A stretch of 49,791 bases of DNA from an uncultured Nitrososphaeraceae archaeon (GTDB taxonomy: Archaea; Thermoproteota; Nitrososphaeria; Nitrososphaerales; Nitrososphaeraceae), in NCBI GenBank assembly GCA_963837175.1, contig CAWIMJ010000043.1:1-49791 (forward strand), written 5' to 3'. Position numbers and translations under genes: made by a program. Shown in pieces: positions 16,759 through 27,475 of the stretch (within the stretch, counting starts at the first letter, position 1; each line of letters begins with the position of its first letter). Below the pieces are notes generated by a model, which was given only the letters and a program-made list of their open reading frames with translations, was not told the origin of the DNA and made no database searches.

Positions 16759-17130
16759 ATGAAAGAGGCACAATCCAATTCTTATGATATCTATAGTCAT
16801 ATCATTGAAAATTCTTTATTTACTAATAGACAAATAGATATTATTTGTAAAAAATTAAAGAACACTGATCGGCCAACAAACATGACAGCCGGTGCCTATT
16901 ATAGACAGATAAAGCAATGTAAGAGCAAGGTCAGGAGGCTCCTATATAGTCTAGTATTGCTTAGATCATTAAATGTAGTAGACAAGCAAACACTTTTTGC
17001 AATCGAACGTATTAGCGAACAACTTGCCGTGATGTTTATTAATAAAAGTAGTGATATTTCTCAGTCATATCAAAGCAGTAGCGTGATATTTGCACTTGAT
17101 GAATTAATAAAGAGAATGAATACTTTGTAA
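16759..17130 (+). CDS. Origin-adjacent HTH protein (Tfx/sigma-70 region 4-like)
   Basis: LFTNRQIDII...MTAGAYYRQIKQCKSKVRRLLYSLVLL resembles an HTH followed by a long helix. Confidence 0.7.
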   Translation: MKEAQSNSYDIYSHIIENSLFTNRQIDIICKKLKNTDRPTNMTAGAYYRQIKQCKSKVRRLLYSLVLLRSLNVVDKQTLFAIERISEQLAVMFINKSSDISQSYQSSSVIFALDELIKRMNTL

Positions 17131-17750
17131 AATTATATTACTCTATAAGATTATATCACTGTGGTGACTCAGATATCGTGATATGAGTGATATTTTAAGT
17201 TCTAACCTACATCTTATCATTATATCTATTATATCATATACTGTAGGTATCCTTAGTGTTATATCTTATATTAAGTTGAAAGAATCTATTCGATTCTCAC
17301 TTAACACAGAAGAAAAAACTATTGAGTCAATAGTCTCAGAATATACTCATAGATTAAATAATTATGATAAAGCAATTTCTGAATTACGTGTTAGAATGGA
17401 CACAATAGAATTAAGAGCAATCCAAAATAATACTTTAGATATTTCTCCCCAGATTGAAACAGTTAGTACAAAAGCCTACAAACAAAACACAACAACATCA
17501 CGGCATGAGTCACAGTCAGAACGACCACATAATCACATCTCCCCTGTGAGTGATTTAGTGACCGTCACGCAACCAGCGTCTACCATATCATCAAGACATC
17601 AAGATTCGTATAATGGCACTCTGGATTTCATATTGAAAATGCTGATGGAGAAACCGAGAACCTCGAGAGAAATCCAACATTCCGTTGGAAGAACACGGGA
17701 ACACACATCACGCCTTATGAAGAAACTTTATGATTCCAAATTGGTGATTA
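17029..17750. repeat. Dispersed GTGATAT/GTGAY motif array
   Basis: Exact GTGATAT at 17051, 17083, 17178, 17187 and reverse at 17153; variants at 17029, 17164, 17495(r), 17507(r), 17530(r), 17550, 17558-17568, 17705(r), 17744. Confidence 0.6.
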
Positions 17751-17893
17751 GAGATAGTAACAATAAGCCCTTCAAATATAGTATTACTGACGCAGGTCGT
17801 ATACAGTTGAGGGGACATCATGGGATAAATGGAGAGATTGTACATGTTGCTGACGCTGATTCGACTGACTCTCAATTACCTGCGATGACCTAG
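17183..17893 (+). CDS. Membrane-anchored coiled-coil winged-helix protein
   Basis: N-terminal TM helix (LIIISIISYTVGILSVISYI), coiled coil, S/T/H-rich linker, C-terminal wHTH (RTSREIQHSVGRTREHTSRLMKKLYDSKLVIRD...FKYSITDAG). Confidence 0.8.
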   Translation: MSDILSSNLHLIIISIISYTVGILSVISYIKLKESIRFSLNTEEKTIESIVSEYTHRLNNYDKAISELRVRMDTIELRAIQNNTLDISPQIETVSTKAYKQNTTTSRHESQSERPHNHISPVSDLVTVTQPASTISSRHQDSYNGTLDFILKMLMEKPRTSREIQHSVGRTREHTSRLMKKLYDSKLVIRDSNNKPFKYSITDAGRIQLRGHHGINGEIVHVADADSTDSQLPAMT

Positions 17894-18290
17894 TAATTAT
17901 CTTATATATCCATTCTTTTCCCTTTCGATTTCTGGCCAGTTTACCTCTATCAGAATATCTTGACAAATAAGTCGAGATTATACTCAGCTGAATAGGTTCA
18001 TTATATTCATCTTCATATATCTCAAGAATATCAGATGATGTGAAAGTATTATATGGAAATTTATTTTCAATTATACTCCATATCTTTGAGCCGACAGATA
18101 CCAAATTGTTGTTTTGGCTTTCTGTATCAATATGTCCATTGTTACTCTTTCCACCTAAGTTAATAAGGTCCATTAATTCAAACACTTTCATAATCTTCTC
18201 TTTTGAAAGATTACCCTCTAAAGAAAGATTATACTTGCCTCCTTCGGCATCTTCGAGTTGAATCTTTATCTTCTTTTTGCCTGCGCTCAA
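17784..18290 (-). CDS. Origin-adjacent winged-helix protein, divergent from cdc6
   Basis: N-terminal domain KIKIQLEDAEGGKYNLSLEG; C-terminal wHTH FTSSDILEIYEDEYNEPIQLSIISTYLSRYSDRGKLAR...EWIYKI. Confidence 0.8.
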   Translation of the reverse strand: MSAGKKKIKIQLEDAEGGKYNLSLEGNLSKEKIMKVFELMDLINLGGKSNNGHIDTESQNNNLVSVGSKIWSIIENKFPYNTFTSSDILEIYEDEYNEPIQLSIISTYLSRYSDRGKLARNRKGKEWIYKIITRSSQVIESQSNQRQQHVQSLHLSHDVPSTVYDLRQ

Positions 18291-18461
18291 TCTAGAGTAT
18301 CTTTACCTGTTGACAGGTTAACATGTTAACAACTTAACAGAGGTAGTAATAACTCAGATAACAATTAGCTTAGTTTTTGTTAACTTATATGAGATAGTCA
18401 TAAAGTTATTAACATAAAAAACTTGTTAACTAATTTTTATATCATTGCAAGGAACCTTAAA

Positions 18462-18483
18462 GTTCCAGTCGAAATAAAGGGGT
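18462..18483 (+). promoter_or_regulatory. Origin recognition box ORB1
   Basis: GTTCCAGTCGAAATAAAGGGGT matches the archaeal ORB consensus GTTCCAGTGGAAAC-AAAGGGG. Confidence 0.9.
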
Positions 18484-18522
18484 GTAATTATTCATATTAA
18501 CAGTGTTAACGACAACTATAAC

Positions 18523-18544
18523 ACTCCAGTGGAAATAAGGGGGT
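18523..18544 (+). promoter_or_regulatory. Origin recognition box ORB2
   Basis: ACTCCAGTGGAAATAAGGGGGT. Confidence 0.9.
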
Positions 18545-18620
18545 CATATTCAACAGTTTCAGGATTTTATCAATACTATGTTAACATGGCTGTGAATGTA
18601 ATAATTTCTGTTGCAAGTCG

Positions 18621-18642
18621 CACCCTATTATTTCCTGTCCAG
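18621..18642 (-). promoter_or_regulatory. Inverted degenerate ORB
   Basis: Reverse complement reads CTGGACAGGAAATAATAGGGTG. Confidence 0.5.
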
Positions 18643-18803
18643 AGCTCTCCTCATAGTTTGATAATATTAGATAAATTATTTTATTAATTAATTAATAAAA
18701 TTAGATTTTATGCTTTAAAAGCGATTTGTTAACATTATGTTAACATAATATTAACAAATGTTTCTTCTTATGTTGGATAAGAAAGATAGGGGTGTGGATA
18801 AAA

Positions 18804-20027
18804 ATGAGCGATGACTTTCTTGATAATATCTTTGAAAAGGCTGCTACGGGAAAAACCTTAATGAAAAACCGCCGAACTTTAACAATAGATTATGTTCCTG
18901 AAAAGCTTCCATTTAGAGACGAAGAAACTAAAATAGTCGCACAGGCGCTATCTGTAGTTCTCAAAGGCGCGAGACCATCAAATCTGTTACTTTTTGGTAA
19001 ACCAGGTACTGGGAAAACTGCAGTAGTTAGAAAAGTAATTGAACATCTGGACAAAAAAGCCAAAGAGTTGGAATTGGAAGTTATAGTGCCATTTATAAAT
19101 ACAAAATCTGCAAATACTGCATACAAAGTACTTTATGAAATAGCGGAGTATATGGGAATTAACAAAGAGGAAAAGAAATTACAAGTGCATTTCACAGGAC
19201 TATCAATGGGTGAAGCAACAGATAGAATTCTTGATTTTATTGGAAAGAAAAAACTGAATGTTGTTATTATATTCGACGAAATTGATTCACTAGTAGATAA
19301 AAATGGTGATGATATTTTGTATAATTTTACAAGGGCAAATGAAAGGATCCCCAAAGGAGGATTTATTAGTTTAATTGGAATATCTAACAGCCTCACATTC
19401 AAAGATAAGCTTGATCCTCGTGTCAGAAGTAGTTTGAGTGAGGAGGAGATGGTATTTAATCCATATAAAGTAGAACAATTACAGAAGATTCTGATAGATA
19501 GATCTAGATTAGCATTCAATGATGATGCTGTTTCCAATGCAGCAATAAATCTGTGTGCAGCAATGGCTGGAAAGGAAAATGGTGATGCAAGAAAAGCAAT
19601 TGATCTCTTAAGGGTTTCCGCCGAAATTGCTGAAAGAGAAAAAGCAGATAAGGTAGAAGAAAAGCATATTAGATTAGCCCATGAAAAAATAGAAAAAGAT
19701 ACTAATTATGAGATATTAAAAAATTCTACTACCCATACTAAGATAATAATAATGGCAATAATGAAATCAAAAATTGGCAATACTGGTGAAGTATATGAAA
19801 TTTACTCATCATTATGTAGACATACAGAGCAAGAACCACTTACACAACGCCGTATAACTCAAATAATAAGTGAGCTCGATCAACTCGGTCTTGTAATGAG
19901 TAATATCATGAGCCAAGGTCGATATGGTAGATCGCAGAGAATCAAAATTACTGTCCCAGTTTTGACTATTAAAGAAGCATTGAAAGACGATCCAATTCTT
20001 TCTGCATTATTAATGGCTAATGATTGA
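18804..20027 (+). CDS. cdc6: Orc1/Cdc6 replication initiator
   Basis: Walker A GKPGTGKT, Walker B IIFDEID, LDPRVRSSL, GDARKAIDLLR, C-terminal wHTH with SQGRYGR; ATG at 18804 preferred over GTG at 18792. Confidence 0.98.
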   Translation: MSDDFLDNIFEKAATGKTLMKNRRTLTIDYVPEKLPFRDEETKIVAQALSVVLKGARPSNLLLFGKPGTGKTAVVRKVIEHLDKKAKELELEVIVPFINTKSANTAYKVLYEIAEYMGINKEEKKLQVHFTGLSMGEATDRILDFIGKKKLNVVIIFDEIDSLVDKNGDDILYNFTRANERIPKGGFISLIGISNSLTFKDKLDPRVRSSLSEEEMVFNPYKVEQLQKILIDRSRLAFNDDAVSNAAINLCAAMAGKENGDARKAIDLLRVSAEIAEREKADKVEEKHIRLAHEKIEKDTNYEILKNSTTHTKIIIMAIMKSKIGNTGEVYEIYSSLCRHTEQEPLTQRRITQIISELDQLGLVMSNIMSQGRYGRSQRIKITVPVLTIKEALKDDPILSALLMAND

Positions 20028-25505: not shown

Positions 25506-27475
25506 ATGTCCGATCCGGAATTCGATAAGTTATCAAAAATATATGAAGAAAGCGAAAAAATCAAAGTAAACTTGGAAGGGAAAAAACTTTATAAAATAAG
25601 AAAGCAAGCATCGGAAAGTTCAGAAGAATTTTGGGCAGAGCAAGCAAAATATCTGAATTGGTTCAAAGAATGGGATAAAGTACTCGATTGGAATCCTCCA
25701 TTTGCAAAATGGTTTATTGGTGGCAAGCTAAATGCGTCTGTCAATTGTCTCGATAGACATATTGATTCTGATGCAAAAAACAAGGTAGCCATAATCTGGG
25801 AAGGTGAAAATGGCGAAACCAATTCATTTACCTACTATCAATTATACCGTTCTGTTAATAAATTCGCTAGCGTTCTGAAAAATCTTGGTGTGAAAAAAGG
25901 TGATCCGATCACAATTTATCTACCTATGATTCCTCAGCTTCCGATTGCAATGCTAGCAAGTTCGAGAGTTGGCGCAATTCATACTGTTGTTTTCTCTGGA
26001 TTTAGCTCTAAATCATTAGCTGATAGGGTAAATGACTCGAAATCAAAAGTTATAATAACTGCTGATGGTAGCTGACAGAAGAGGAAAGCTTGTCCCTCTG
26101 AAAAGAGTTGTAGATGATGCTATTTCTTCTATCCCTTCAGCAGAACATGTTATTGTAGTGAAGAGAGCATCAAATGATATTCAGATGGGGCCAAAAGATT
26201 TATGGTGGCATGACCTAATTGAAAATGCGCCATCATATTGTGAGCCAGAAATTCTAGACAGTATGCATCCTTTGTATATTCTATATACTTCCGGAACAAC
26301 AGGAAAGCCAAAAGGAGTACTGCATAGTACCTGGCGGCTATCTTACATATTTGTATGCAACAGCTAAATGGGTTTTCGATTTTAGAAAGGAAGACATTTT
26401 CTTTTGTACTGCAGATATAGGATGGGTGACGGGACACAGTTACATTGTTTATGCACCACTGCTTCATGGTGTTACCGAAATAATGTATGAAGGGACTCCT
26501 GATTATCCAAAACCTGACAGATATTGGGCCATAGTGGAAAAACAGGGTGCATCCATTCTATATACCACTCCTACTGCTCTTAGAATGTATATGAAATTTG
26601 GAAATACTATTCCTAATTCATTTGATCTGTCTTCGCTTCGTCTATTGGGTACTGTAGGCGAGCCGATTAATCCGGAGGTTTGGATGTGGTATTTTAAAAC
26701 TATTGGAAAGGAAAGTTGTCCCATTGTTGATACATGGTGGCAGACTGAAACAGGTGGCATTATGATAGGTATGTGTACCGGTATCGACTCTGTTCCCATG
26801 AAACCTGGTTCAGGCACCTTTCCTGTACCTGGTATAGATGCAGCTGTCGTCGATGAAAATGGAAGACAAGTAGATCCCGACAGAAAAGGATATCTAATAA
26901 TTAGAAAGCCGTGGCCTGGAATGTTAATGACACTATGGGAAGATGACGAAAAATACCGCAAAACTTACTGGAGAAAATTTGAAAATGAAAATGTATACTA
27001 TGCTGGTGATTATGCACTTTCTGATGCTGACGGCTATCTTTGGCTTCTAGGTAGATCCGATGATGTACTTAAAGTAGCTGGACATAGGCTTGGTACAATG
27101 GAGTTAGAAAGCGCATTTGTATCATACAAAGCGATTGCGGAAGCTGCAGTAACAAGTAGGCCAGATCAGAAAAAAGGAGAATCAATAATTGCGTTTTTGG
27201 TGCTGAGGACAGAATTTTTACCATCTGATCAACTGCGTGTTGAGCTTATTGATCACATTCGAAATTCAGTGGGACCAATTGCAACACCTGAAGAGATTTA
27301 TTTTGTTAATAAACTTCCCAAAACTCGAAGTGGAAAAATAATGCGGAGATTGCTTAAATCGATAGCTAGTGGAGCAGTAGTAGCAACTGGGGATGCTACC
27401 ACACTTGAAGATGAGGCATCGTTAGAAGAAATAAGGCAAGCCTATAACGATTTACATAAAGTAGTTGACCTCTAA
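25506..27475 (+). CDS. acs: Acetyl-CoA synthetase (AMP-forming); two 1-nt insertions (about 26074 and 26331)
   Basis: [69 protein letters not shown], spread over three consecutive ORFs. Confidence 0.93.

Follow-up and report, generated by a model that had tools for sequence, protein, structure and literature searches.

At bacterial origins of replication, the sites of CtrA (Caulobacter Cori), Spo0A (B. subtilis oriC), SeqA (GATC), and IHF and Fis are interleaved with initiator boxes and control the action of the initiator, and this region frequently regulates the initiator gene as well. The timing of replication initiation in archaea is largely unexplained. How TACK archaea control their ordered cell cycle is unclear according to the accessible text of a 2024 review (PMC7617429). 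The described archaeal system that comes closest to the one treated here is ucm/UBP of the Sulfolobales. UBP, a beta-hairpin protein of 111 residues, occupies as a monomer one 11-bp site as well as over 300 further sites, according to the accessible part of its description (Dhanaraju et al. 2025, PMC12141716); its gene does not lie at the origin, and that description reports it only from Desulfurococcales and Sulfolobales. The same text asks about analogous origin proteins outside these two orders.

Here we describe three genes, A, B and C, and two arrays of short repeats that lie beside the orc1/cdc6 initiator gene of an uncultured Nitrososphaeraceae archaeon. They are contained in a stretch of 49,791 nt (contig CAWIMJ010000043.1 of assembly GCA_963837175.1), which we refer to as the window; the genome that holds it comprises 3.81 Mb in 58 contigs at approximately 34% G+C, the window being its contig C43. 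The three genes and their arrays constitute an undescribed, widely conserved module associated with oriC. A literature search, the coverage of which did not extend to Pelve et al. 2013 or to supplements, found no description of the genes or the repeats, and a search on the accessions of the orthologues at one related locus (L078) found no mention of them. Our preferred reading, to which we assign a probability of about one half, is that protein C would read the repeats at the origin and control expression of its own gene and of cdc6, the firing of the origin, or both.

The origin beside cdc6 and its repeats

The orc1/cdc6 gene occupies 18804..20027 on the forward strand and matches Cdc6_lid (4.5e-23) and Cdc6_C (7.8e-21). 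Its longest open reading frame (ORF) opens at a GTG at 18792, but the alignment of orthologues begins at the ATG at 18804, which is therefore probably the start. Gene C (17784..18290, reverse strand) is transcribed divergently from cdc6. The 513-bp spacer between the two genes contains two forward origin recognition boxes (ORB1, 18462..18484; ORB2, 18523..18545), an inverted one (ORB3, 18621..18644, reverse strand) and an AT-rich stretch (18655..18712), read from the sequence, that is a candidate unwinding element. A mini-ORB (18781..18794, forward strand), conserved in relatives, lies just 5' of the cdc6 start codon and encloses the upstream GTG. Judged by this combination of elements adjoining cdc6, the spacer has the makeup of a standard archaeal Orc1/Cdc6-dependent oriC and is the presumed chromosomal replication origin. 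An earlier note on this DNA had placed ORBs here, with genes directly to their left, and both assignments hold: there are three ORBs and a mini-ORB, and A, B and C are open frames. For comparison, the accessible text of a review (PMC4010727) states that Pelve et al. 2013 mapped a single origin in N. maritimus.

The same spacer is populated by a second motif, the actual repeat unit of which is the half-site TGTTAA/TTAACA. Its left group (18317..18430) lies over and upstream of the C promoter region, with sites at 18317-18339 (three tandem copies), 18378-18384, 18409-18414 and 18424-18430. A TTAACA/GTTAAC pair occupies the interval between ORB1 and ORB2 (18497..18510), a position also occupied in relatives, and a TGTTAACA site lies between ORB2 and ORB3 (18579..18586). 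Three more TGTTAACA/TTAACA sites (18727..18756, forward strand), with a period of 11-12 bp, follow 3' of a TATA-like box (18714..18721, forward strand) that we assign to the presumed cdc6 promoter; this layout of TATA-like box and repeats before cdc6 is also found in Nitrososphaeraceae relatives.

The origin is the densest cluster of the motif in the genome, with 16 half-sites in 434 bp against a genome background of 1.0 per kb; the next-densest clusters have 8. Counted as the hexamer GTTAAC, 8 of the 14 copies in the window fall in 18317-18744, and nowhere else in the whole genome are there more than 4 copies per 500 bp. Genome-wide the hexamer is neither depleted nor enriched (795 observed vs 728 expected, a ratio of 1.09). 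We inspected two secondary GTTAACA clusters together with their neighbours and found no clear regulon and no tRNA. The first of these (G000:C34:99893-99978, or 2894-2979 of locus L225) is the second-best GTTAAC cluster, with four (T)GTTAACA sites in 86 bp, and is flanked by a Peptidase_M50-CBS-SpoIIM gene and an uncharacterised 188-aa ORF; the M50 gene is of the site-2-protease type, a kind able to cleave membrane-anchored regulators. The second (L226, G000:C34:161062-161509) has eight TGTTAA/TTAACA half-sites 3' of a type IA DNA topoisomerase gene.

The repeats recur at the origins of other lineages. In the loci fetched from other genomes, the GTTAAC copies lie almost all in the origin spacer, and TTAACA/GTTAAC arrays of the same layout are found in Nitrososphaeraceae, in one sister family and in Nitrosopumilaceae-type genomes. 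The common layout has copies over the C start, a pair in the ORB1-ORB2 interval, one or two copies ahead of the inverted ORB, and two to three just after the cdc6 TATA-like box. Spacers of 88 further ammonia-oxidiser loci contain on average 6-12 TTAACA half-sites. In other families the corresponding positions are taken by TTCACA/GTGAAC, usually in direct repeats at distances of 8-11 bp. The density of TTCACA/TGTGAA across 15 origin spacers of distant loci is 5.47 per kb, vs 0.57 per kb in the flanks of those loci. At two loci of one family (L109 and L135, family f26) C is divergent from PCNA, and neither A nor B is present within 5 kb; there the PCNA start is preceded by a TATA-like box, with a TTCAC-n3-TTCAC pair in the interval between the two. 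At the edge of the origin in one spacer (L052, G022:C17) lies a (TTAACAC)n tandem array in which at least 16 copies are broken up by an assembly gap of N; this is the half-site amplified as a microsatellite.

Protein C, the candidate reader of the repeats

Gene C encodes a protein of 168 residues that consists of an N-terminal domain, a variable linker and a winged helix-turn-helix (wHTH) domain. It is 'hypothetical' in all sources and has no precomputed Pfam domain. Penicillinase_R (PF03965) aligns with residues 83-151 and matches 19 of 28 C orthologues at E<=0.1, with a best value of 1.1e-7. The NCBIfam model for CopY (TIGR02698) gave 1.4e-5, far below its cut-off, and the PDB profile matches were 2k4b, MecI and BlaI (E 0.015-0.11). 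An Atlas search returned feature matches to Nitrososphaerota clusters and to one Bathyarchaeota cluster, 18% of the members of which carry Penicillinase_R. The best-conserved part of C, residues 1 to about 45, matched no family in Pfam, NCBIfam or PDB profile searches. From these profile matches, the wHTH of C appears to be of the BlaI/MecI/CopY type and is combined with a novel N-terminal domain; the order, N-domain followed by wHTH, with no C-terminal helical dimerisation domain, is not the architecture of BlaI/MecI. The earlier description of C as a wHTH protein divergent from cdc6 is thereby upheld. In Nitrososphaeraceae, C ends in a short conserved peptide of the type S/T-T-V-Y-D-L, which is absent from the shorter C proteins of other families and could be a docking motif.

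Two of the genes are expressed in a relative. At L078, RNA-library contigs of one study (X9) match B (616-1258) and C (1364-1891) individually, and in the stranded raw reads of another run (X21) the two genes are represented on opposite strands. B and C are transcribed in this organism, each on its own strand.

We also compared the origin motif with the sequence of C. The helix L-S-X-(V/I)-S-T-Y-L of C contains a residue, X, that a hidden Markov model (HMM) alignment places at the start or in the first turn of the MecI recognition helix. X is Thr in 21 TTCACA-dominated genomes and I, V, L, M, A or E in 26 TTAACA-dominated ones; over 51 genomes, 47 of the 50 informative cases are concordant, with 3 exceptions and 1 tie. 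X changes together with the motif in the ammonia-oxidiser clade and a second time within one other family, in which it is A at L112, L219 and L220 vs T at L217 and L218, the A and B helices being unchanged. There may be a third switch in another clade, in which counts are low (1-3 sites). The covariation is suggestive support for C as the reader of the repeats; it is not proof, because the tree-aware test has only 3 contrasts and is non-significant. The covariation of motifs and recognition helices for which the earlier note had called was found for residue X of C, and was not found for B, which is invariant, or for A, which does not follow the motif within one family.

We propose that C would be a sequence-specific wHTH factor that recognizes tandem TGT(T/G)AA repeats spaced approximately one helical turn apart. 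Such repeats occur over the C promoter; among the ORBs, at which Orc1/Cdc6 binds and MCM loading would take place; and in the stretch from the cdc6 TATA-like box to the mini-ORB. Occupancy by C would feed back on transcription of C and cdc6, gate the firing of the origin, or do both. The binding partner of each motif and the direction of regulation are what we infer from the sequences.

A potential concern with assigning this role to C is that its gene can leave the origin. Eight Nitrososphaeraceae genomes have C elsewhere, with A-B and the arrays still at the origin, which implies that C is not obliged to act in cis and that the place of its gene is dispensable. In one genome the origin copy of C contains stop codons (L053, G023:C75) and an intact copy lies on another contig (L012, G023:C57); this looks like an intermediate in relocation. 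At five relocated loci (L009, L010, L072, L074 and L076) a roughly palindromic element, AGCT-T-AGC-TTTTTGT(T/C)A, lies 70-100 bp upstream of C, and it travels with C, for it is also in the window at about 18355-18386.

The relocation of C to other sites is one of several points that count against C as an origin-bound regulator. The promoters of relocated C genes have at most single GTTAA sites. The C protein of the window itself scores 17.9 bits against Penicillinase_R, below the 22.6 cut-off. In a crude scan, a tandem pair between forward and inverted ORB was present in 62 of the 103 spacers in which both kinds of ORB were detected. Among the exceptions to the covariation, L115 and L129 bear Thr and have more TTAACA than TTCACA, and L224 bears Val with TTAACA vs TTCACA at 0 vs 1; when the comparison is made on the Cdc6 tree, the 3 contrasts are independent and the motif follows X in about 2 of them (sign test p ~0.5). 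The RNA contigs and reads from L078 give presence and strand for B and C, not transcript ends, and A has no coverage there in X9 or X21.

Much of the evidence can also be accommodated by control of transcription alone, with A, B and C autoregulated, the repeats serving as operators and initiation left untouched. Sites are indeed situated at the promoters of C and of cdc6 (after the TATA-like box), at the B start and, in L109 and L135, at PCNA; divergent pairs of regulator and target are common, and C can leave the origin. We consider this explanation possible, on the unlikely side, for three reasons: the inter-ORB sites, both in the window and in distant families, lie away from either promoter; the number of half-sites at the origin far exceeds the needs of a simple operator; and the A-B pair stays at the origin even after the departure of C.

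Another possibility is that C is the wrong protein and that the repeats are read by Orc1/Cdc6, by a UBP-like nucleoid protein, or by a methyltransferase together with a SeqA-like reader acting on GTTAAC. The hexamer is a palindrome of the methylase type, and the arrays remain in place where C is encoded elsewhere. There is a precedent in the ucm of Sulfolobales, a non-ORB motif bound by an unlinked nucleoid protein (PMC12141716). A reader other than C is very improbable in our estimation. In most lineages the motif is the non-palindromic TTCACA, half-sites also occur alone, and GTTAAC is not skewed in the genome; the switch of motif tracks residue X of C, and the motif accompanies C to the PCNA promoter. 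The gene for UBP (ubp) is, as far as the accessible text reports (PMC12141716), confined to Desulfurococcales and Sulfolobales, although no search for such a gene was made in the genome of the window.

Two specific candidates for such a reader were rejected. A SeqA-like or methylation-based reading does not accord with clusters of GTTAAC that are confined to this clade, with relatives that use non-palindromic TTCACA/GTGAAC, or with the observed/expected ratio given above. The second Orc1/Cdc6 paralogue was rejected since the arrays are present in genomes with a single cdc6 (e.g. G007, G027 and G036). In the genome of the window this distant paralogue lies at G000:C50:373197-374129 and has 27% identity; it is present in most Nitrososphaeraceae and absent from several other families.

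Distribution of the module and the roles of A and B

Linkage of the module to cdc6 was determined in a sample of 41 genomes of the order Nitrososphaerales, the window's own included. Single-protein queries detected C in 37 of these genomes, B in 38 and A in 30. Of the 36 in which the main cdc6 was detected, 35 have B within approximately 3.4 kb of it, and in the remaining one the locus is broken by contig ends; 27 have C, in one case as a pseudogene, placed between B and cdc6. A is directly upstream of B across the order, and a profile finds it in all 10 of the remaining divergent loci. Among 109 further loci, which come partly from the same genomes, the order A-B-C-cdc6 is found in 86 and A-B-cdc6 in 9, and 14 are cut by a contig end.

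The module is also found outside the order. A locus search with the B alignment gave 591 confirmed matches, the best 80 of which were all Nitrososphaerales, and a C profile matches 132 of 201 genomes sampled across the phylum. The C family was found in none of 45 genomes from seven families with a full-length Cren7 gene (a gene present in 43 of the 45). In 30 loci from approximately 25 families C has cdc6 as its neighbour in 16 cases and is abutted by B in 14, and two further families have the full gene order in 8 of 8 loci. The B-C pair persists in lineages without an adjacent cdc6; where cdc6 is not adjacent, the neighbours of C are PCNA, an HTH-CBS protein, HypF and others, and an ORB-like core often lies 110-200 bp upstream of C. 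Two checks suggested in the earlier note thus came out in its favour: the trio is linked to cdc6 within the order and well outside it, and both arrays recur at orthologous loci. That the module reaches far beyond Nitrososphaerales, and that C rather than the whole trio is the likely reader of the repeats, are two points that the note had missed.

Gene A (16759..17130, forward strand) is an open frame of 123 aa and belongs to no known family. Pfam gave only z-alpha at 2.2e-3, NCBIfam gave no family, and a PDB profile search gave nothing relevant. The label 'Tfx-like' attached to A by the earlier note found no support: in 24 A orthologues Pfam showed no HTH of the Tfx or sigma-70 region 4 kind at E<=0.1, nor was there a match of the Tfx type in NCBIfam or the PDB profile search. 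The 120 relatives among the matches listed are all 'hypothetical' and have no Pfam domain. A conserved stretch, S-L-F-T-x-R-Q ... G-A-Y-Y-R-Q-x-K-Q, looks like an HTH, and A may be a small, possibly DNA-binding partner encoded with B.

Gene B (17183..17893, forward strand) encodes 236 residues arranged as a transmembrane (TM) helix, a helical segment, a linker and a wHTH; its 3' end overlaps that of the convergent gene C by 110 bp (17784-17893). A single N-terminal stretch of 19 hydrophobic residues (Kyte-Doolittle mean >=1.6), with none later, is present in 29 of 31 orthologues, and the choice of start codon may explain the two that lack it. The helix spans approximately residues 9-30 and is preceded by about 8 residues, so there is no extracellular sensor domain. 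B gives only weak profile matches to coiled-coil chains, and the linker before the C-terminal wHTH is variable and rich in S, T and Q. Matches of the wHTH to Pfam were all sub-threshold (HVO_A0261_N, 2.5e-5; TrmB, 2.8e-3; HTH_Crp_2, E 0.046 and 14.1 bits vs a cut-off of 27), with no cyclic-nucleotide-binding domain such as CRP/FNR proteins have; the best PDB profile matches of the HTH were Vfr/CRP at E 0.014. Its recognition helix, R-E-H-x-x-R, is identical in all 53 sequences compared except one, which has K-E-H. These results agree with the earlier description of B as TM helix, linker and wHTH. Pfam and NCBIfam scans found no peptidase family in B, which is accordingly no sensor-protease partner of the BlaR1/MecR1 M56 type.

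The second array of the module, of GTGATA/TATCAC (17051..17193), has five sites, which run from the 3' end of A through the spacer between the two genes into the first codons of B. One site abuts the B start codon and a TATCAC box lies approximately 30 nt upstream. The 5 sites in 137 bp form the top cluster of this motif in the genome, which has a background of 0.61 per kb; of the 19 window copies of GTGATAT, 5 fall in 17051-17193. The two arrays that the earlier note had distinguished are separate, and each is the densest cluster of its kind in the genome. Arrays of GTGAT/ATCAC (or GTGAC) also precede B elsewhere in the genus and the order and in distant families, and in places take the form of GTGATATCAC palindromes; some GTGATA copies are inside the A coding region, with third codon positions conserved. 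The B helix is unchanged across the phylum, and therefore its target should be the invariant motif. In our preferred reading B would be tethered to the membrane by its one N-terminal helix, with the wHTH in the cytoplasm, and most likely binds the GTGAT arrays at its own promoter, approximately 1.2 kb from the ORBs. In CRP, a helix with R-E-x-x-x-R reads GTGA. A point against transferring this to B is the weak similarity of its HTH to that of CRP. Autoregulation is the simplest reading of the GTGAT array.

The architecture of B raises the question of whether the module positions the origin. B could, through the GTGAT array, anchor origin-proximal DNA to the membrane, possibly together with C bound to the origin repeats, so as to position or sequester oriC. 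The TM helix present in nearly all orthologues without any extracellular sensor domain, the presence of B by oriC in 35 of 36 genomes, the retention of the B-C pair where cdc6 is not adjacent, and the location of CdvA and a Snf7-type gene 6-18 kb away are all compatible with such a role in tethering or segregation. We nevertheless regard it as improbable. Since the GTGAT array sits exactly at the promoter and start codon of B, autoregulation explains it equally well; several distant loci have B in an operon after an HTH-CBS gene and no upstream array; and the window has no partition ATPase. As the earlier note had stated, there is no Walker-type ParA/SegA among the 30 larger ORFs of the window (E<=1e-5), the sole NTPase being a GPN-loop ATP_bind_1 protein approximately 30 kb away. 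Membrane tethering of oriC is therefore possible but unsupported. The earlier interpretation is supported as far as an origin-associated regulatory module and the option that it 'regulates initiation' go; its specific mechanisms (membrane tethering and a SeqA-like action) and the Tfx label are not supported.

An HTH_3-CBS gene is found beside B or C in distant families (L117, L118, L127 and L132) and upstream of B at six loci (L110, L119, L121, L123, L129 and L133); its product may be a further member of the module or a replacement of A. Downstream of cdc6 in the window comes the gene for the small subunit of PolD, and the gene for the large subunit lies, like CdvA and the Snf7-type gene, 6-18 kb off. 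Elsewhere in the window, an acetyl-CoA synthetase-type gene (ACAS_N/AMP-binding) is present as two ORFs, 25506-26072 and 26351-27472, with a gap of 280 bp, which may be due to a frameshift, a pseudogene or an insertion.

Comparison with described systems

The locus gives a concrete candidate for the timing of initiation in ammonia-oxidising archaea and many of their relatives, and offers a repeat of defined sequence, a candidate reader in which one residue is predicted to determine specificity, and a membrane-anchored partner. The repeat could also sharpen the prediction of origins in metagenome-assembled genomes. A more far-reaching reading is that most Thermoproteota, outside the families that carry Cren7, would have an origin written in two codes, the ORBs being read by Orc1/Cdc6 and TGT(G/T)AA by C, with C working with B to couple the supply of initiator, the loading of the helicase and the placement of oriC at the membrane; we consider this extension doubtful.

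Small DNA-binding proteins at origins or centromeres are likewise known from WhiP, AspA/ParB-ParA and SegAB. Pfam and NCBIfam scans detected no similarity of the module to the Cdt1-like WhiP or to partition proteins. The regulators of bacterial origins have no homology to it either; archaea have an initiator and a mode of helicase loading of eukaryotic type, and no logic of phosphorylation or methylation is evident at this locus. B resembles CRP/FNR in the R-E-x-x-x-R spacing of its recognition helix and in the GTGA core of the arrays upstream of it, and differs from them in having no cyclic-nucleotide-binding domain, in its membrane anchor and in the spacing of its sites (e.g. GTGATATCAC).

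BlaI, MecI and CopY share with C what appears to be the same type of wHTH, a gene divergent from its target, operators in the shared spacer and a paired gene for a membrane protein. Members of this family bind TACA/TGTA boxes, which the TGT at the start of the origin repeat resembles. In contrast to these repressors, C has the reverse order of domains and no C-terminal dimerisation helices, its neighbour B is without the M56 sensor-protease, and the repeats are direct, multi-copy and inside a replication origin.

The closest analogue, ucm/UBP of Sulfolobales, is unrelated to the present module. According to the accessible text (PMC12141716), it likewise has a short non-ORB element between the ORBs of an Orc1-dependent origin, and the element is read by a dedicated sequence-specific protein, as we propose for C. 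Compared by description, the two systems differ in that the candidate reader here is a wHTH protein encoded at the origin, and in that its motif is multi-copy, vs the single ucm in the DNA unwinding element. If the two-code reading were true, the module would represent an archaeal system of origin licensing and anchoring unrelated to those described, and a functional counterpart of ucm/UBP.

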